Assembly (NCBI GenBank): GCA_963931215.1 | Contig: OZ006989.1 | Location: forward strand, 1,183,816 to 1,247,815 | Direction of reading: 5' to 3' | Origin: Prevotella sp. CAG:755 | Lineage (GTDB): Bacteria; Bacteroidota; Bacteroidia; Bacteroidales; Bacteroidaceae | Length of the DNA stretch: 64,000 nucleotides | In this document: piece by piece, positions 1-10,330 of the stretch | How positions within the stretch are numbered: position 1 is the stretch's first letter | How the letters are laid out: each line of letters opens with the position of its first letter | Program-made: the position numbers and the translations under genes | The notes under the pieces: generated by a model | The model's input: only the letters and a program-made list of their open reading frames with translations | What the model was told of the DNA's origin: nothing | Database searches by the model: none

Positions 1-279
1 GACAAATGAGTTGCTCTCTTCCGAATAGTACTCAATCCTTGAGAATTCATAGGAATGAATTAGCGCGTCAGTGTTCTTGCTTGTCAAAGCATAAAGTCCT
101 AACGCATTATTGTAAAGATAGAACCCGTCAGAATCCTTCTCTCTCCACAGTTTAACGTAATTGCTGCCCGGTCTCAATTCCTCCATCCGAGAAAAAGTGC
201 CTCTGATTATCGACGGGTCACGGCTGTCTATCAATCTTATTTTTTCATTTTCAACGTTCATGGCTTCCATCATACTCAT
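1..279 (-). CDS. Hypothetical protein, partial (runs off the window edge), coupled to the helicase
   Basis: Manual translation gives MSMMEAMNVENEKIRLIDSRDPSIIRGTFSRMEELRPGSNYVKLWREK..., open to base 1. Its ATG (279-277) overlaps the helicase TGA (ATGA). Not in the ORF track because it has no stop in the window. Confidence 0.6.
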   Translation of the reverse strand, partial: MSMMEAMNVENEKIRLIDSRDPSIIRGTFSRMEELRPGSNYVKLWREKDSDGFYLYNNALGLYALTSKNTDALIHSYEFSRIEYYSEESNSFV

Positions 280-2846
280 TTAAAAATTGTTTCAGCAGTT
301 GTCTCAATACAATCAAGAGGTATGTCATCAAGATATATGCCCTCAACATTCAAATTACAGGTTCCCTCTATGTCTCCATTACCAGCAAATGTACATTCTA
401 TGATTTTTTCTTCACTGCCTTCAGCTGTAGCCAAATGATAGAGGACCTTACTTCCTGGTTTAATGCGCTTCTCTTTGCCTGCGGGAATAAATTCCTTGGC
501 GGCCTCGTGATTCAGCACTGAGTCGCAAAGAGCCGTCAATGCATGACGCGTTTCATCATTGATCTTTGGACAGAGCGTTGAAATGACAATATCCATGTAT
601 TGCTTGATATAGCCCATTAAATCCTTGAGCAGGCGTTCATCCAGAAGTTTCTTTGTGATGTTAATCTTATTCGTGTCGTAAAGTGCAACGAATCTGTTGC
701 CTGAGCGAAGGTTTTCATTCTCGAATTCGCTGAATAAGCGGCTGCCCTTATGACTGATGTCGTTTCTGTCAAAGGCTCTTAGACGGAGGAACGTTTCAAA
801 CAATATGTCGGCTATATCGCTAACCTCTACATTCTTTTCATTAAAGGCAGGATGGAAGATAACTGTGCCTGTAGTCCTCAGCATGGGCAGGAAATAGGGA
901 GCGGAAAGTCCTTCTTCATCTGTATATGGATTATAAATTCTCTTGCTTCTTGTAGTTTCATAATAGCCATACACTGTTTGGTGCTCTTCCAGTTGCAGAT
1001 TGAATGCGACGCATTCGCCAAACTCAATCGTACCATACCGATGTTCCTTTTCAAAGTCGGGGATGACATAGCCGCGATGATATGAGTCGGTCTTTAGAAT
1101 CCCGGAAGTATTGCATCTCTTGGCAATGATTTTGTGTTCGCCATTAATGACACGCACTATTCGTTCGCGAATTCTTTTGCCATTTTTATAGGTGGAGCGG
1201 ATTGCTTGCGGATAACCTTCCGTAGCAATTTGCTCACGGCTGATTTGCTCGTCTTTAGGTAGAATGTCCTCATGCTCCGTGACAGCAGCAATAGAAAATT
1301 GCTTGCCGAAATGTCTTAAAGTATATGCACGCTGAGGGTTTGCACAGTTATCCGCATATTCTTTGTATTCACCAGGGAACTGCCCATTGAGGACTTTGTC
1401 GCACAGTACTCCAAATGAGCTTGGGAACAAATCTTTCCCGTCAAATACCGGGCGCTGGTGTCTCGGTTTCTTCCATTGGGCATACTCACAATTGTCATGG
1501 TCGCCGACATGCATTAAAGCTTGGACACACTGAATTGTTGGATCCTCAAGATACAATGCAGGCTCGTAATTAGGCAGCACTTTATCTATATTGCAACCGA
1601 ATTCCTCGAAAAGAAGCTTCGACGGCAACGAGTGGTCATTCTTCACAACTATCACATAACTGTTGTCGCATTTGCCTCTTCCGACACGTCCTATACGTTG
1701 TTGATAACTGTTCTTGTCATGAGGCATATCCGCTATGATGCATAAATTCAGGCCATCAATATCTATGCCTATTTCTAAGGCACTTGTACTGATAATTCCT
1801 CTGAATCTGCCGTTCTCCAGCGCATCGGCTATGATGTTTGAAGATGCCACCTCATATCCGGAGCGATATGCAAAAATGCCGTCAGTGCCATTGCTGTCCA
1901 GATTATTGGCCATGACACCGGTCTTCTGTCTGCTCTCAACGAACGTAATGCTCTTTGTGGCATCAAGTTCTGTGAATGCCTTGACTAGAGCTTCTTCGCT
2001 TGCCTTTGTTGCATCATCGGCTTTCTCAACGAAATAGAAAGTTTTTTTAGCCATGGGTGAACCATCAACGTCAATCCCAATCTCAACAAAGTCACTCGCC
2101 CCCGTAATATTGAAAGAGTGCTCACAAGCATTGGGCAGTGTCGCCGATGCCGTGATATATTGCGCCGTGTCGTTCGTTCCACGCAAGAGACGGCGAACAT
2201 TGTTCAGACGCCTGAAGAGATAGGCTGAATTTGTCCCAAACAAGCCTTTGTACAGGTGGAGCTCGTCAACAACCACAAGGGATATGTTCCTGATAAAGTC
2301 TTTAACAACGTTGCCATAACGGTTATTGTTGATATTGTCGAGTAGCCAAGCATGAATGACGTCGGGCGTCATTACTACCACACGTTTGGTTTTCAGGATA
2401 TTCTCTCTTTCATGCCATTTGGTATCACCATCTATCTTCCCGACACCCTCGTATGCCTCCTTCCAACGCTCTACTTGCTGACGGTTCAATGCTTTCATGG
2501 GATATACTGCCAAGACCTTGGCGTTAGGATCGTTAGCCAATAATTCCAACGCTGAAAGAATGAAAATCTCAGATTTGCCTGAACTGGTCGAGGTCGTCAC
2601 ACATACATTTTTCCCTTCCTTGGCTGCCTTGACAGCAAGATATTGGTGATTCCACAAGGCTGGTATCTCACAACCTTCAAGATAGTAAGTACTAAGTTCT
2701 GAAAGATTCAAGTCATCATAGGATTTGCTTACTGCAGAACGTTTGCATTCGGTTTCGGTATGACAGATATGGTAACCGCACCCTTCTATCACACCCTTTA
2801 CTATGCTGTCGTTAAGAAGACTATTTGAATTTGTTAAATTATCCAT
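276..2846 (-). CDS. SF2 DEAD/DEAH-box helicase, MrfA/Hrq1(SftH)-like
   Basis: Motif I TSTSSGKS, motif II DELH, motif III SAT, motif V STSALEIGIDI, motif VI QRIGRVGR, then a long C-terminal region. ATG at 2846 (the track starts at GTG 2852). Confidence 0.85.
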   Translation of the reverse strand: MDNLTNSNSLLNDSIVKGVIEGCGYHICHTETECKRSAVSKSYDDLNLSELSTYYLEGCEIPALWNHQYLAVKAAKEGKNVCVTTSTSSGKSEIFILSALELLANDPNAKVLAVYPMKALNRQQVERWKEAYEGVGKIDGDTKWHERENILKTKRVVVMTPDVIHAWLLDNINNNRYGNVVKDFIRNISLVVVDELHLYKGLFGTNSAYLFRRLNNVRRLLRGTNDTAQYITASATLPNACEHSFNITGASDFVEIGIDVDGSPMAKKTFYFVEKADDATKASEEALVKAFTELDATKSITFVESRQKTGVMANNLDSNGTDGIFAYRSGYEVASSNIIADALENGRFRGIISTSALEIGIDIDGLNLCIIADMPHDKNSYQQRIGRVGRGKCDNSYVIVVKNDHSLPSKLLFEEFGCNIDKVLPNYEPALYLEDPTIQCVQALMHVGDHDNCEYAQWKKPRHQRPVFDGKDLFPSSFGVLCDKVLNGQFPGEYKEYADNCANPQRAYTLRHFGKQFSIAAVTEHEDILPKDEQISREQIATEGYPQAIRSTYKNGKRIRERIVRVINGEHKIIAKRCNTSGILKTDSYHRGYVIPDFEKEHRYGTIEFGECVAFNLQLEEHQTVYGYYETTRSKRIYNPYTDEEGLSAPYFLPMLRTTGTVIFHPAFNEKNVEVSDIADILFETFLRLRAFDRNDISHKGSRLFSEFENENLRSGNRFVALYDTNKINITKKLLDERLLKDLMGYIKQYMDIVISTLCPKINDETRHALTALCDSVLNHEAAKEFIPAGKEKRIKPGSKVLYHLATAEGSEEKIIECTFAGNGDIEGTCNLNVEGIYLDDIPLDCIETTAETIFK

Positions 2847-2882
2847 CGCCACAAGTATTGGAAATTAAATGATGTCTAAGTA

Positions 2883-3302: not shown

Positions 3303-4178
3303 TTATGGGAGGTTCTGTGGGACTTGGCCAACTGTTGCCTGCTGTCTTTCCTGTTTGATTGCCAGCGCCTTCAGGTCAAAGCCATACTTGCCGTATATCC
3401 TTTCGATTTGGGACCAATCGGCACGTTCGCCAAGGCACCAGGCGATATAGTTGATGATTTCGTACATCTGCACCGCCTCTGCCTCCATGAGCACAGGTAC
3501 ATAATTCTCATAGGCAGCATTGTCGTAGGGCCTTCTGTCTGATCGCGACACCTCGAAGTCGAGCAGTTCCAGCGCCCACGTGTAGTTTTGCGGGTGCATG
3601 GCGTTGTGCATGACATGATGGTCGTGGAGCAGCTGCAGGTTCCGAACGACCACTTCGGCGGCATACAGGTGGTAGAGCCCGTCGATGCGTCCCCACCTCT
3701 CCAGATATTCCCGCAACATGCCTTTGGGCATGAAGCCATAGTCGTTGATACGGTACGGGCATTCAACGCTATACTGCAGCAGGGCGGCCTGGCATTCCTG
3801 GCCTCCTTTGAGGATGGTTCTGTCCAATGCCACTACGCTCTCCATGCAGTTTGTCCTGATGCCGAGGCTGCTTGCCTCCATGCCTATGTCATAGTCCCTT
3901 ACCGCATTCTCCAAAGGCAGGCCGCCCCAGGTGTCACCCCACTGTTTCGAGGTGGCGAGGTAAGGGTATGAAGTATAGCTCAACCCGTTCCCTTTTCCTA
4001 TAATCCATTTGAACTCGTCTGTACGGCGGAGCAGGAAACTGCGCCCGTGCCTCGGACTGACGCACCAGATGGTCTCCCGTCCCTGGTCGTTGCGTATGAG
4101 CGGAAGGATACTGACGCTGTCGTCTCTTTTGCGAACCGCCTGACAGCCGGCGGCCTTTTCTGCCTTGAATGTCTGCAT
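3303..4178 (-). CDS. Minimal SelO/YdiU-like protein-kinase-fold enzyme (putative AMPylase/kinase)
   Basis: Collinear SelO-type motifs: RHGRSFLL (GDGRxxLL), IGKGNGLS (LKGAGLT), AVRDY..SLGIRT (IRE..LGIPT), HNAMHPQN (HGVMNTDN), LLDFE (LDYG). Confidence 0.65.
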   Translation of the reverse strand: MQTFKAEKAAGCQAVRKRDDSVSILPLIRNDQGRETIWCVSPRHGRSFLLRRTDEFKWIIGKGNGLSYTSYPYLATSKQWGDTWGGLPLENAVRDYDIGMEASSLGIRTNCMESVVALDRTILKGGQECQAALLQYSVECPYRINDYGFMPKGMLREYLERWGRIDGLYHLYAAEVVVRNLQLLHDHHVMHNAMHPQNYTWALELLDFEVSRSDRRPYDNAAYENYVPVLMEAEAVQMYEIINYIAWCLGERADWSQIERIYGKYGFDLKALAIKQERQQATVGQVPQNLP

Positions 4179-4206
4179 GGCTTTTAATTTGAGGATTTAC
4201 GATGAA

Positions 4207-4238
4207 GGAGGAGACACTCGCACGGGAATGCCTCCTCC
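4207..4238 (-). other. 13-bp stem-loop between the peptide gene and the SelO-like gene
   Basis: Minus-strand GGAGGAGGCAUUC / GAGUGUCUCCUCC with a 6-nt loop and two G-U pairs. No long U tract, so it may stabilise the mRNA or attenuate readthrough. Confidence 0.6.
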
Positions 4239-4259
4239 CGTTTTGGCGAACTGCAAAAC

Positions 4260-4367
4260 TTATGTGTTGTGCTTTACAAGTACGGTCGGGCATGAGCTCT
4301 GGTAAGCGCATGCCGACATGGTCATGATGCTTGACACATGCTTGGCCTTCAAATCGTTTTCTTTCAT
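4260..4367 (-). CDS. Putative RiPP precursor peptide, 35 aa
   Basis: MKENDLKAKHVSSIMTMSACAYQSSCPTVLVKHNT. ATG is 35 nt after the rSAM stop, co-oriented, followed by a hairpin. Below the ORF-track size cutoff. Confidence 0.6.
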   Translation of the reverse strand: MKENDLKAKHVSSIMTMSACAYQSSCPTVLVKHNT

Positions 4368-4402
4368 ATTCTGCAGATTTTGAAAGATTACAGGAATAGT
4401 TC

Positions 4403-5958
4403 TCAGGACACTCCATTTATCCCCGCCTGATCGCGGTAGCTGACCGTGGTCAAGCGTCTTAACGCCGGTATTTCTATGCGGAGGCTGTCAAGGGCCTCCT
4501 GCAAGCTTCTGCCTTGCAACGGATCGTAACCGTCCTTTATCTTCTGGGCCAGTCCATACCGCTCCTTGGCCAGGTAACAGTTGTTCTCCGACGGCCGCAG
4601 CGGATTACCATGGGCGGTAAAGTTGTTGCCGGGGCACATCTGGCAATACAGGCAATACGGCTGCCGGTGGCACTCGGTGCAGTCGCCCAGCCGTTGCTCG
4701 CGCCACCATCCCAGCGTCCTGCTCCGGTTGACCGTCTCCATGAACGATGCGTCGCGCACGTTGCCCACCTTCATGGGAAAGGCGCAGCAGGGCTGAATGT
4801 TTCCCTCGGGCGTTATGCAGAACGTGCTGAATCCGGCCGAGCACATCAGTTCGTCCGGCTTGGTCTCCAGTACGGCCACTTCGCTGTTGCTGATATAATA
4901 AGGAAGGTCCCGGTCGCGCAGCACCACTTCCAGCTCCTCATGCCCGAGGCGCAGGCAGGTGGACGCGCAGCGGTCACCGTCGACGGAGTCGGTGATGTTA
5001 AGGTCGAACTGCGGCAGTGCGCCATACTTACAGGCAACTTCCTTCACCGTGGGGTATGTCTTTACATTGGGCTTCATGATGCAGCACTTGAGCATCATCG
5101 GCAAGGCAAGCTCGCTGCACCTCTTTATGAAGGCCAGGGTGCAGTCATGCGAGTCCAGCACACGAGTGATGGAATCGTGCACTTCCGCACGTCGCTGTAG
5201 AGCGAAATGCCGATGGAACGGGGAAAGAAGCCGGCCAGACGGTCAACGTCGTCCGCCACGCTGACGCCATTGGTAAAAATGTCGATGGCCAGTCCCTTGT
5301 CGTGGAGATAGGACAGGATGTCCCAGACAATCGGTTTTGAGAACGGGTCGCCGTCGGAAAGCGTCACCTTTACGAGTCCTTGCCCGTACAGCTCGTCAAT
5401 GACGCGCTTGTATTCGTCGAGCCGCAGTTCGTCACGTTGACCGCGCAGGCTTTTCTCCTTAGAATTCCTTGTGGCGCCCGCATTGTAGCAATGGATGCAC
5501 ATCTCGCTGCACCGGTATGTCAGCTCGAGCATGACGCTTGTCACCTGTCCGGTTCGTTCCGCATACATCCGTTCCGCGTCTGCCGTGCCGACGCTTATCG
5601 CTTCGCGCATGTCCTGCACGCTGTCGGCGACCTGCTTTTTGCGGCAGCTCAGCAAGCCGTCCCGATAAAGCTTCACATCCTCCGCCGTGGCCACACGGTT
5701 GGCAAGCAGGCCATGCTGTGCCATGTCATCAAAGAAAGTTTGGAGCCTGTCCGCATCCACACCGCTTTTCAAGGAAATGTCTTCAACTGTAAACGGCGTG
5801 TTGCGGTCCATATCAAGAAGGCAGCCTACGACGAGGGCTGACGTGTCTTCATAGTAATAGCACAACCCCTCTATGAGGTTGTAGTAGATGGCGGCACGAT
5901 GAGCAGGGTCGTATCGTCCGCATGTCCATTCCGGTCTGAGGTATTCGGTCATTGCCAA
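4403..5958 (-). pseudogene. Radical SAM/SPASM peptide maturase with an N-terminal PqqD/RRE-like domain, frameshifted at 5187/5188
   Basis: CxxxCxxC (CSEMCIHC) lies in ORF 5125-5958 and SPASM cysteines (CSAG..QPCC..CTEC..CLYCQMCPG..C) in ORF 4403-5182. Adding one G (GTG[G]CG GAA GTG CAC GAT) fuses them into ~518 aa. Confidence 0.8.
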
Positions 5959-5980: not shown

Positions 5981-6030
5981 CAAAATTAAAGTCAACCTAT
6001 GGGAAAACAATCATCCATTCCGTCCATTTG
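5981..6030 (-). promoter_or_regulatory. Promoter of the rSAM operon (TTG-19 nt-TAATTTTG) with a conserved 29-bp upstream element, copy 2
   Basis: -7 box at 5981-5988, TTG at 6008-6010. Same spacing and upstream sequence as the 3243-3292 promoter. Confidence 0.65.
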
Positions 6031-6294: not shown

Positions 6295-7275
6295 TTGTTA
6301 AAAAAGGATCTGTACTTTAGCCAGCGTAATGATAAAAGGCATACGATTATGATTGGATTGGAGAAATTTGATAACTTGATTTCCTTGATAACTTACTTCA
6401 AGGACAACGCAACCTGCAAGCAGTTCCTGAAAGAACAGAGATGGGGTGATGACGTGGTATGCCCTTATTGCGGACACCACCATTGTTATTCACGTTCAAA
6501 CGGACAGTTCCGCTGTCCGAATTGCTTGAACAATTTCTCCGTCCTTGTCGGGACAATCTTTGAGAACACCAAGATTGCCTTGGTGAAATGGTTCTCTGCC
6601 ATGTACCTTATATCTTCCCATAAGAAAGGTATCTCTTCTCACCAATTGGCAAGGGATATCAATGTCACGCAAAAAACGGCTTGGCATATCCTGCACAAGG
6701 TGCGTTCTCTTTACAGCCAAGACGATTCTATCGAACTGTCAGAAGATGTGGAGTGTGACGAGGCATATATCGGTGGCGACGAGAAGAACAAGCACGAAAG
6801 CAAGAAAACCGAAGGCACGCAAGGCCGTTCCTTAAAGACCAAGACACCCGTCTTCGGAATGGCTCAGAGAAACGGTAACATTGTCGCTATGAAAACCCAA
6901 GATACGAAAGGCAGGACATTGATGCCTATCATCAGGCAGTTTGTAAAGGATGGCTCTCGTATCTATACTGACGAATATATAGGTTACAACTCCTTGGTAG
7001 AAAGCGAATACAGCCACGCTGTCGTTAATCACGGAGCGAAACAGTTCGTGGATGGTGACAAACACACCAATACCATTGAAGGCTTCTGGGCGCAATTGAA
7101 ACGTGCAATCTTTGGCATCTATCACTTTGTTTCAGCAAAGTATCTCAAAAGGTATGTGGATGAAGCCGTTTTCAGCTATAATTCACGAGAGCAATCTGAA
7201 AGCGAGCGTTTCAGAATTATGTTCAAACGCTCAATCGGAATTTTCCGTTATGCAGATGTGAAAAATGTTGGATAA
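6295..7275 (+). CDS. IS1595-family (ISXO2-like) transposase
   Basis: Zn-ribbon CPYCG..CPNC, HTH region, ECDEAYIGG, YTDEY, NTIEGFW..LKR..GIYH. Confidence 0.93.
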   Translation: MLKKDLYFSQRNDKRHTIMIGLEKFDNLISLITYFKDNATCKQFLKEQRWGDDVVCPYCGHHHCYSRSNGQFRCPNCLNNFSVLVGTIFENTKIALVKWFSAMYLISSHKKGISSHQLARDINVTQKTAWHILHKVRSLYSQDDSIELSEDVECDEAYIGGDEKNKHESKKTEGTQGRSLKTKTPVFGMAQRNGNIVAMKTQDTKGRTLMPIIRQFVKDGSRIYTDEYIGYNSLVESEYSHAVVNHGAKQFVDGDKHTNTIEGFWAQLKRAIFGIYHFVSAKYLKRYVDEAVFSYNSREQSESERFRIMFKRSIGIFRYADVKNVG

Positions 7276-8535: not shown

Positions 8536-9786
8536 TTATTTTAAGGATTCACATTTCTCTGGGTAATCTGGTATATCATTCCCATAATCCTTAGTTTGCT
8601 CACACTCATGAAAGAAGTCATCTTCACTGAAGATCCGCAAACCTTTGTATTTGCCATGCCATAGTTCGTTGAATACGGGCATCAGACCGTTTTCCCACTC
8701 CACCGCGGTTCTGGAATAACGCTCCATCGAGGCGGATGTCAGAACGGCCGAGTCATTGTAGGCGCCCAACAATTCGTCGAACGACGGACGTACAAGTTCG
8801 CGCAGTTCCTTTCGTAATTCCTTGTGCCGGGCTTTGGTCATTTTGGGGAAGGAAGATACGGCCGGAGTCTGCAGAAGTTGCGTGCGGGCTGAGTCCTTGA
8901 CCGGCACGGATGGCATCGCTGCAGCGCCTTGTTCGTCGGTCTTAGCCTGATCGGGAACTTTCTCCGGTATCGTTTGGGACGGTTCTTCTTCCTGACGGTT
9001 TTCTTTTGGGTATGTAATCAAGAAAGCGGTTACAACCAGCAAGGCGGCAGCAATGGCGTAGGCCGCTTTATGCCAGTGGGCCTTGCGGAAGGCGGCAGCC
9101 TTCAGCTCGTCCACAGTCTGGTAGCGTAAGGCCTTCTCCTCCGCCGTGCATCGTTTGGCTATCTTTCCGTACCGGGAAGCACACGGCAGCTGCTGCAATA
9201 TCTTGCCAATGGCATAGATGTCCGTGCGTTCATCCGCCTTGCCATCTTCTTCCTTCTGTTCAGGGGCCGCGTAAAAGTCCGTCCTTCCCGTCGTATCGGG
9301 AAACCCGTCCGTATAGCAGAAACCGAAATCAATGATCCGGACATCATGGCCGATGTCCGTGAGGAGGATGTTCTGCGGCTTCAGGTCGATGTGGAGCACC
9401 TGGTGGGCGTGAAGATACCCTACGACGTCGAGCAATTGTTGAAGGAAGCGGTCGGCGTTCTCCATTTTTTGAAAGTATCCGGGATGGCTCGCCAGGAACG
9501 CCTCCAGTGTCTCGCCCTCCACATATTCCATGATGATGTAGTCCTCGCCGCGCGACACGTATCTCACAAGACCGGGATGTTCGAGGGTGAAGCCAGTTTC
9601 AAACTCCTTTTGCAGGATGGCACGGTAAAGCGGATCGGAGGCGAATGCCGGCTTCAGACGCTTCATGAAATACATCTTTCCATAAAGCCTGACACGGAAT
9701 CCGTCACACGTCGAACCGTTGGCGGCCATGGGCATGGCCTCGCCCGTCAGGTCGTGGGCTGAATTGTCAAACGACGAGTTCTCCAT
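8536..9786 (-). CDS. Membrane-anchored Ser/Thr protein kinase, truncated by the IS
   Basis: YFMKRLK, HIDLKPQN, IIDFG, APE, DIYAIG, TM helix AAYAIAAALLVVTAFLITY. The residues after KDY (GNDIPDYPEKCESLK) are read from the IS end. Confidence 0.88.
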   Translation of the reverse strand: MENSSFDNSAHDLTGEAMPMAANGSTCDGFRVRLYGKMYFMKRLKPAFASDPLYRAILQKEFETGFTLEHPGLVRYVSRGEDYIIMEYVEGETLEAFLASHPGYFQKMENADRFLQQLLDVVGYLHAHQVLHIDLKPQNILLTDIGHDVRIIDFGFCYTDGFPDTTGRTDFYAAPEQKEEDGKADERTDIYAIGKILQQLPCASRYGKIAKRCTAEEKALRYQTVDELKAAAFRKAHWHKAAYAIAAALLVVTAFLITYPKENRQEEEPSQTIPEKVPDQAKTDEQGAAAMPSVPVKDSARTQLLQTPAVSSFPKMTKARHKELRKELRELVRPSFDELLGAYNDSAVLTSASMERYSRTAVEWENGLMPVFNELWHGKYKGLRIFSEDDFFHECEQTKDYGNDIPDYPEKCESLK

Positions 9787-10330
9787 CTTTCAAGATTCTC
9801 AAGGCGGTCAATCCGCCAACCTTGCCGGCCGTATATGAGCCGAGGCTTTCGCCGTCGCGCCTTACATCGCTGACATATAAGGGGTACTTGCGCATCATGT
9901 GCCAGATTTCCAGCTCGTCACCGGCGCAGAGCTTGCTGTTCACGCTTTTCTCCACCAGATACTTGTGATCGCCTATGTTGCGGATAATTAGTTCGCGGTC
10001 CGGCTTATAGGTCAGGCGCACCCGTGAACCGACAGTGACCCGATCCACAATGTCGGGCGGGTTGAAGCCCGAGCTGTACATCTTGTCTCCCATCTTGGAG
10101 AGCATGTTCCAGTTGTCATAGCCCAGATATCGGGCGATGATGTCGAGGGTGGAAACGCGCGGCTGCTCGTCCTCCAGAAGGCCGAGCAGCCGCTTCATCG
10201 TGTTCAATCCGAACGGCTGGCCTGTCTTGCCCTCGATGTCCAGCACCAAGCGCTCGACATCTGACGAGGTGCTCAAATCGCTTCCCGACTTTTTCTTTAA
10301 CTCTTCTTGAACTTGGAATGGCAGTATCAT
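9767..10330 (-). CDS. Hypothetical protein with an N-terminal HTH-like domain, coupled to the kinase
   Basis: GLNTMKRLLG..PRVSTLDIIARYLGYDNW resembles an HTH/Xre helix pattern; overlaps the kinase start. Confidence 0.65.
   Translation of the reverse strand: MILPFQVQEELKKKSGSDLSTSSDVERLVLDIEGKTGQPFGLNTMKRLLGLLEDEQPRVSTLDIIARYLGYDNWNMLSKMGDKMYSSGFNPPDIVDRVTVGSRVRLTYKPDRELIIRNIGDHKYLVEKSVNSKLCAGDELEIWHMMRKYPLYVSDVRRDGESLGSYTAGKVGGLTALRILKDGELVV

Follow-up and report, generated by a model that had tools for sequence, protein, structure and literature searches.

The window, a 64,000-nucleotide stretch of a Prevotella sp. CAG:755 contig, carries a 35-codon open reading frame (ORF) that is, judging from its sequence context, probably the precursor gene of a three-gene radical SAM (rSAM) cassette, patchily distributed in gut and rumen Bacteroidales and reduced to a relic in this species. 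The cassette is encoded on the minus strand throughout (rSAM gene, peptide ORF, hairpin and SelO-like gene), in the order promoter, rSAM, peptide, hairpin, SelO-like gene (Table 1).

Table 1. Features of the rSAM-peptide cassette, in window coordinates
Feature	Position	Strand	Description
Bacteroidetes-type -7 box	5981..5988	-	TAATTTTG; about 25 nt upstream of the rSAM start
rSAM maturase gene	4403..5958	-	RRE-like/radical SAM/SPASM; reads as two ORFs
5' ORF of the maturase gene, 277 aa	5125-5958	-	RRE-like N-terminus and CSEMCIHC (CxxxCxxC; Pfam Radical_SAM)
Frameshift site	5186..5188 (about)	-	one C missing from a Pro codon, CCG to CG
3' ORF of the maturase gene, 259 aa	4403-5182	-	SPASM
Precursor-type peptide gene, 35 codons	4260..4367 including stop (ATG 4367, TAA 4262-4260)	-	MKENDLKAKHVSSIMTMSACAYQSSCPTVLVKHNT
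Stem-loop	4207..4240	-	GGGAGGAGGCAUUC-CCGUGC-GAGUGUCUCCUCCU; 14 bp, 3 of them G.U
SelO/YdiU-like protein, 291 aa, predicted kinase fold	3303-4178	-	third conserved gene of the cassette

The peptide can be divided into a leader of approximately residues 1-18 (MKENDLKAKHVSSIMTMS) and a core (ACAYQSSCPTVLVKHNT) that holds the invariant Cys20 and Cys26. Its start codon lies 35 nt past the end of the SPASM-half ORF at 4403, the spacing given in the first-pass annotation. That annotation had staked its reading on conservation of the ORF beside orthologous rSAM genes, and such conservation was found. A scan of 185,579 species genomes yielded 129 loci, of which 80 were kept and joined by two same-genus loci, and in 76 of these 82 a co-oriented ORF of 33-36 amino acids begins 5-200 nt past the rSAM stop. 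The enzymes of the ORF-bearing loci are 43-75% identical, and the position, length, frame and key residues of the ORF are kept. Two genomes of the same genus, with intact enzymes 45% identical, carry a 34-aa ORF at the equivalent site; their leaders are identical, while the cores differ and retain both Cys.

Among 74 aligned peptides the two Cys are invariant in all 74, positions occupied by L, S, G and R are conserved at 90% or more, and a leader segment MKxxLxISxxSxV is shared. Peptides of the main type follow the pattern MKV[DE]LxISxASxVVxMSxC[PS]KxxExxCGIxYRxx (C-x7-C-G-I-x-Y-R), with a conserved leader and hypervariable residues between the Cys. The subtype to which the window belongs reads ...SxxVxMxAC[AS]YQ[SC]SCP[TD][VI]LVK[HFY]N[KQT] (C-x5-C-P) and occurs in loci L021-L024, in L113 and in an isolate of Bacteroides zhangwenhongii (L120, GCA_040095535.1). 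Its core, ACAYQSSCPTVLVKHN, is almost invariant across genera, and the B. zhangwenhongii isolate has a near-identical one.

The substitution pattern is that of a coding sequence under constraint. Between the window and L113, its nearest intact relative, pN is 0.15 and pS 0.46 (NG86 counts), and main-type peptides have a median dN/dS of approximately 0.47. In a DNA alignment of five loci, third-position changes accompany identical residues throughout the core, and similarity is lost right past the stop codon. A profile built from the peptides and searched against 1.84 billion representatives matched 117 clusters at E <= 1e-3, 45 of them at 1e-10 or better; all 117 are of 31-76 aa and match at their C-terminus. 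Sequence comparison thus indicates that the 35-aa ORF is a real, conserved gene whose peptide is under purifying selection. Pfam and NCBIfam gave no match to the peptide, its homologues are named 'unknown' or 'hypothetical protein' in public records, and the ORF is uncalled in several assemblies. An overlapping 160-aa ORF (3934-4416, minus strand), which runs out of frame across the peptide gene and the hairpin into the beginning of the SelO-like gene, is rich in Arg and was set aside as an artefact. We also observed that in L024 (3540-3900) the peptide gene is present as a tandem duplicate, with copies that lie approximately 172 nt apart and differ by one residue (PDVLVK versus PDILVK); duplication in tandem is typical of RiPP precursors.

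The gene upstream of the peptide matches Radical_SAM and SPASM in Pfam and belongs to a family of at least 120 rSAM clusters at E below 1e-160, in which Cys at positions 148, 152 and 155 and nine C-terminal Cys are invariant. Among the relatives listed, all enzymes are intact, with approximately 520 residues, and the best is 75% identical. An AF2 model of this 75% homologue (pLDDT 88.7) displays an N-terminal three-strand sheet followed by helices. When the model was compared to the PDB with Foldseek, the best match was CteB (4e-14), followed by SuiB, TigE, PqqE and SkfB, and the full-length alignments extend to the RRE-containing CteB and SuiB; the sequence profile placed SkfB first (4.8e-13), then PqqE and CteB. 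All five are peptide-modifying rSAM/SPASM maturases, of which CteB and SuiB carry RREs; CteB and SkfB make thioethers, and SuiB, PqqE and TigE make C-C bonds. On the basis of the model, the enzyme is predicted to be folded and organised like a RiPP maturase, and its N-terminal domain appears RRE-like; the Pfam PqqD model did not match this domain.

The enzyme could not be placed in a known named family, as Pfam and NCBIfam returned generic rSAM/SPASM matches that lie far under the equivalog cut-offs. NCBIfam matches were all sub-threshold (best, 98 bits against a cut-off of 500), and the intact homologue P0001 falls under the curated sacti- and ranthipeptide cut-offs (SCIFF, AlbA, PapB, StsB), with scores of 43.9 versus 425 for the SCIFF maturase and 70.5 versus 850 for AlbA. 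Scores for PqqE (65 versus 381) and MftC (73.5 versus 265) are likewise low, and PADLOC returned only weak viperin-type matches to the rSAM protein.

A stem-loop follows the peptide gene. The first-pass annotation had described it as a 13-bp stem 22 nt past the stop; the hairpin itself is there, with a stem of 14 bp and a start at 20 nt, so that size and spacing were off by one to two. The 83-nt tail folds at -27.8 kcal/mol, compared to -14.6 +/- 2.9 for 200 shuffled sequences (z = -4.6), and no shuffle folded as well. The absence of a U-tract was correctly noted, with 3 T among the 8 nt 3' of the stem, and a terminator scan of the window called nothing at the hairpin. A second, weak stem of 7 bp (GUUUUGC...GCCAAAAC; 4241-4259, minus strand) is located between the peptide stop and the main hairpin.

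The hairpin occurs once in the window and nowhere else in the 2.67-Mb genome, and a search of Rfam at E up to 1 found nothing for it, on which grounds we rejected a repeat element or a known RNA. The same observation bears on the possibility that the ORF is an open frame arisen by chance and the hairpin an unrelated terminator or repeat, as might be imagined for a reading frame so short, under the usual gene-calling limits and unannotated in several public assemblies. Conservation over 76 loci, pN lower than pS and 117 profile-matching protein clusters speak against it together with the single-copy hairpin, and we rejected this explanation, to which we give practically no weight.

Hairpins of this kind are a property of the family. 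Strong hairpins were found past the peptide stop in 74 of the 76 ORF-bearing loci, at a distance of 5-35 nt (median 15 nt), with a median stem of 13 bp and a median dG of -20; a T-rich tail follows in 30 of the 76, and 46 are without a clear U-tract. The sequence of the hairpin is conserved only among close relatives. In L113, the homologous hairpin (GGGAGGAG...CUCCUCC) has arms GGGAGGAGACAUC...GAUGUUUCCUCC and an inner stem that differs on both strands.

The first-pass annotation had likened the hairpin to those that follow RiPP precursor genes and raise the precursor transcript over that of the enzyme. The first part holds family-wide and the second does not fit the gene order, since enzyme and peptide are both encoded upstream of the hairpin and the sole -7 box (Table 1) precedes the rSAM gene; no further one was found on the minus strand between the rSAM upstream region and the end of the SelO-like gene, and the window as a whole contains 54 such boxes versus 23 expected. 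Termination at a site downstream of both genes is unable to raise precursor mRNA over enzyme mRNA. An attenuator acting as in precursor-first lantibiotic or sactipeptide operons is thus improbable: the near-universal hairpin directly after the peptide gene would suit it, and so would the loci devoid of a clear U-tract, as expected of a leaky terminator or of a stem that shields the 3' end, but termination here touches the SelO-like gene, and the model needs an endonucleolytic cut in the rSAM-peptide interval or a second, internal promoter, for neither of which there is evidence. We infer instead that the hairpin is a terminator-like or 3'-end element of the rSAM-peptide transcript that would limit read-through to the SelO-like gene. 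It resembles the intrinsic terminators after RiPP precursor genes such as nisA and sboA in being a GC-rich stem-loop near the precursor stop. It differs from them in that the tail in the window has no U-tract, that the precursor comes after the enzyme gene and not before it, and that the element parts the rSAM-peptide pair from the SelO-like gene.

The third gene of the cassette comes after the peptide gene in 54 of 80 loci. Its 291-aa product has no Pfam or NCBIfam match even at E up to 1, and nothing was found in PADLOC. The AF2 model (pLDDT 93) points to a kinase-type protein, the top nine PDB chains in Foldseek being all SelO/YdiU (E 4e-9 to 4e-8, TMq 0.49-0.58) and other kinases scoring 4.5e-5 or weaker. 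Indeed, an invariant HNAxHxxN...DFE aligns in the profile with the HRDxKxxN...DFG of kinases (catalytic loop and DFG). According to the model, the neighbour thus has a SelO-type kinase fold. It shares with the AMPylating and UMPylating SelO/YdiU pseudokinases the closest PDB folds and the equivalents of the catalytic-loop and DFG motifs; in contrast to them it has 291 residues rather than about 460-480, is 13-17% identical, and is known here by its predicted fold. In 14 loci the SelO-like gene is replaced by an M42 aminopeptidase (PF05343, 4.9e-83; for example the M42 glutamyl aminopeptidase at L025:5293-6276), a plausible candidate for a leader-trimming peptidase.

Other genes recur around the cassette. 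In many loci an ORF of 44-72 aa is located between the hairpin and the SelO-like gene (L039:5278-5412, L069:5260-5400, L062:5262-5480, L093:5262-5438); these ORFs form at least four unrelated families with no Pfam match, and the window has none. A membrane Ser/Thr kinase and an HTH-like protein of 183-187 aa (no Pfam match) are encoded ahead of the rSAM gene in 16-19 of 80 loci, including the window (8536-10330, minus strand) and L023 (870-2730). This pair is separated from the cassette in the window by an IS1595 element (transposase at 6295-7275 on the plus strand), which is present in every assembly of the species that reaches that far. A conserved 319-aa protein without a Pfam match follows the SelO-like gene in nine loci (including L023:6169-7128). 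Directly downstream of the cassette in the window (276-2852, minus strand) lies a gene for an 858-aa DEAD/DEAH helicase, whose best PADLOC match is BrxHI (1.1e-27) and whose best NCBIfam match is DECH_helic; a gene of approximately 720 aa follows it in assemblies of the species, and the two may represent a defence module.

The island around locus L113 (1-5860 and 12816-13551) encodes a microbial PARG, a 2',5' RNA ligase-like protein, a protein kinase of 864 aa and Ro60/TROVE, and has the look of a conflict or RNA-repair context. In the B. zhangwenhongii isolate (L120:1-4630) the cassette adjoins serine recombinase and resolvase genes, which suggests that it is carried on a mobile element. Mobile carriage fits the patchy distribution of the cassette, which is present in three of 37 same-genus genomes, the window's own included.

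What the first-pass annotation had treated as a single rSAM gene is in fact two ORFs that overlap by 58 nt, a split that it did not report. The split results from a 1-nt deletion within the conserved segment SLYSDV-P-EVHDSITR, where the window reads AGC GAC GTG C-G GAA GTG CAC and L021 reads AGC GAC GTG CCG GAA GTT CAC. The identical deletion is present in 12 of 12 independent assemblies of the species (ENA and Logan; 99.6-100% identity), which come from different studies and assemblers, and we therefore rejected a sequencing or assembly error as its cause.

Further lesions affect the locus. One assembly (L110) has an additional 4-nt deletion at 4871-4874, in the SPASM half, and in two others (L103 and L104) the ATG of the peptide is changed to ACG at 4366. 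Within the species the rSAM gene holds 10 nonsynonymous and 6 synonymous polymorphisms, and at 5154 the window strain encodes Asp in place of a Gly found in at least 90% of relatives and in most sister strains. Neither a second family member nor an intact cognate maturase was found in this genome. With a frameshifted maturase and no second copy, the peptide is not matured here; at best it would be made and left unmodified, and the cassette is probably a decaying relic in this species.

One might argue that the divided rSAM still works, as an enzyme in two pieces or by way of a frameshift in translation or transcription, and that the peptide is still matured. The halves, of 277 and 259 aa with their 58-nt overlap, have been kept in this state in 12 assemblies, and in most strains neither the peptide nor the SelO-like gene is damaged. 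The site, however, AGC GAC GUG CGG AAG, has no slippery heptamer or homopolymer run, on which grounds we rejected programmed frameshifting or slippage; the break falls inside the rSAM barrel, ahead of the conserved EVHDxITR segment; there is no split enzyme among the relatives listed; and the additional deletion, the losses of the peptide start and the Gly-to-Asp change add to the damage. We thus hold continued maturation in this species to be very improbable. Both rSAM halves keep long open frames in 11 of the 12 assemblies, and most strains share one peptide sequence; some residual function of the rSAM fragments or of the unmodified peptide is conceivable. Signs of decay were also observed in other lineages, with a truncated peptide in L037 (5100-5170), a truncated 417-aa rSAM without a peptide in L028, and a peptide without the usual ATG in L055.

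An intact cassette would thus consist of a promoter, an RRE-like rSAM/SPASM maturase, a peptide of 33-36 aa, a hairpin, and a SelO-like gene or, in some lineages, an M42 aminopeptidase. We propose that the RRE-like domain would bind the N-terminal half of the peptide (MK-x-[DE]-L-x-[IV]-S-x-x-S-x-V), and that the rSAM/SPASM enzyme would then modify the C-terminal core around the two invariant Cys. By analogy with CteB and SkfB, Cys-derived thioether cross-links would be the most likely chemistry; this parallel is drawn from distant relatives (13-20% identity), and the C-C bond formers SuiB, PqqE and TigE are about equally close. The hairpin would end the rSAM-peptide transcript, protect its 3' end, or both, and curb read-through, and the SelO-like or M42 protein might act later or on the same peptide.

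No exporter was found in the conserved neighbourhood, nor a dedicated leader protease in the window subtype, and a secreted natural product is therefore no more than a possibility. A tentative and rather doubtful version of the pathway, which would make the cassette an undescribed class of peptide modification, has the 34-aa two-Cys peptide cross-linked by the RRE-rSAM/SPASM enzyme before a minimal SelO-like enzyme of kinase fold adds AMP or UMP to it or acts on it in some other way; the product may then be an intracellular signal or a conflict-system effector, and not a secreted antibiotic.

It has also to be considered that the small protein is an intracellular, non-exported partner, either a substrate or regulator of the SelO-like, nucleotidyl-transferase-type protein or a carrier that bears a cofactor-like or signalling modification, following the logic of PQQ and mycofactocin. 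In addition to the missing transporter and leader protease, the frequent co-occurrence of the SelO-like gene, the Ser/Thr kinase and 183-aa HTH-like gene upstream in 16-19 loci, and neighbourhoods that resemble accessory or conflict islands (PARG, LigT, Ro60, helicases, recombinases) are all compatible with such a role, as is the presence of PqqE among the nearest structures; moreover, a core as constant across genera as that of the window subtype is unusual for antimicrobial RiPPs. On the other hand, the PQQ and mycofactocin maturase scores are far under their cut-offs, the hypervariable core and conserved leader of the main type form the classic RiPP pattern, the M42 aminopeptidase of 14 loci is a candidate for leader trimming, and the peptide is present in tandem copies in L024. 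We consider this alternative unlikely and retain the precursor reading.

Comparison with characterized systems places the cassette close to several of them. With ranthi- and sactipeptide systems (CteA/CteB and SCIFF; SkfA/SkfB and SboA/AlbA) it shares an RRE-like domain, the CxxxCxxC motif, SPASM and an adjacent short Cys peptide, and the minimal, transporter-less pair of enzyme and peptide, widespread in anaerobes, is reminiscent of SCIFF. It departs from them in enzyme sequence (13-20% identity, with NCBIfam scores far under the cut-offs), in having two Cys in 33-36 aa rather than six in approximately 45, in the location of the peptide downstream of the enzyme, and in its SelO-like partner; thioether chemistry is putative here. 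The PQQ (PqqA/PqqE) and mycofactocin (MftA/MftC) systems are similar in their very short peptide, in rSAM/SPASM and RRE-type recognition and in the lack of an exporter; PqqE is near in structure, and the main-type peptide has conserved Glu/Gln and Tyr. The invariant residues of the present family, however, are two Cys that are absent from PqqA and MftA, and PqqB/C/D/F or MftB/D/E/F were not found in the neighbourhoods of the loci.

Bacteroidales RiPP clusters mined with BAGEL4, BGC8 and BGC6, include rSAM/SPASM enzymes with a short RRE-like N-terminus (PMC10352776). In BGC8, a GG-leader precursor of 61 aa accompanies YcaO, an rSAM enzyme and a PCAT exporter (PMC10352776), and with this make-up of YcaO, PCAT and GG-leader it was rejected as the same system, being of different architecture and with a different peptide family. 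We found no description of the cassette in the literature on RiPPs of Bacteroidales, the rumen or Prevotella, or on SelO with rSAM, and no family in Pfam, NCBIfam, PADLOC or Rfam that covers the peptide or the cassette. As far as its sequence can tell, the cassette has the features of an RRE-rSAM/SPASM RiPP system and fits no named family; its putative SelO-like partner is unusual for such systems.

In this genome, the proper annotation of the locus is an orphan precursor beside a pseudogenised maturase, and not an active biosynthetic cluster. Beyond this species, gut and rumen Bacteroidales are, to our knowledge, poor in characterized RiPPs, and the analysis delimits from sequence alone a compact cassette that occurs in no fewer than 129 species-level genomes and over 100 protein clusters, with at least one cultured carrier, B. 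zhangwenhongii. If the SelO-like protein does nucleotidylate the peptide, it would be the first SelO-type enzyme in a RiPP-like pathway. A profile made from the peptide alignment would let annotation pipelines pick up a peptide that is usually left uncalled or 'hypothetical'.
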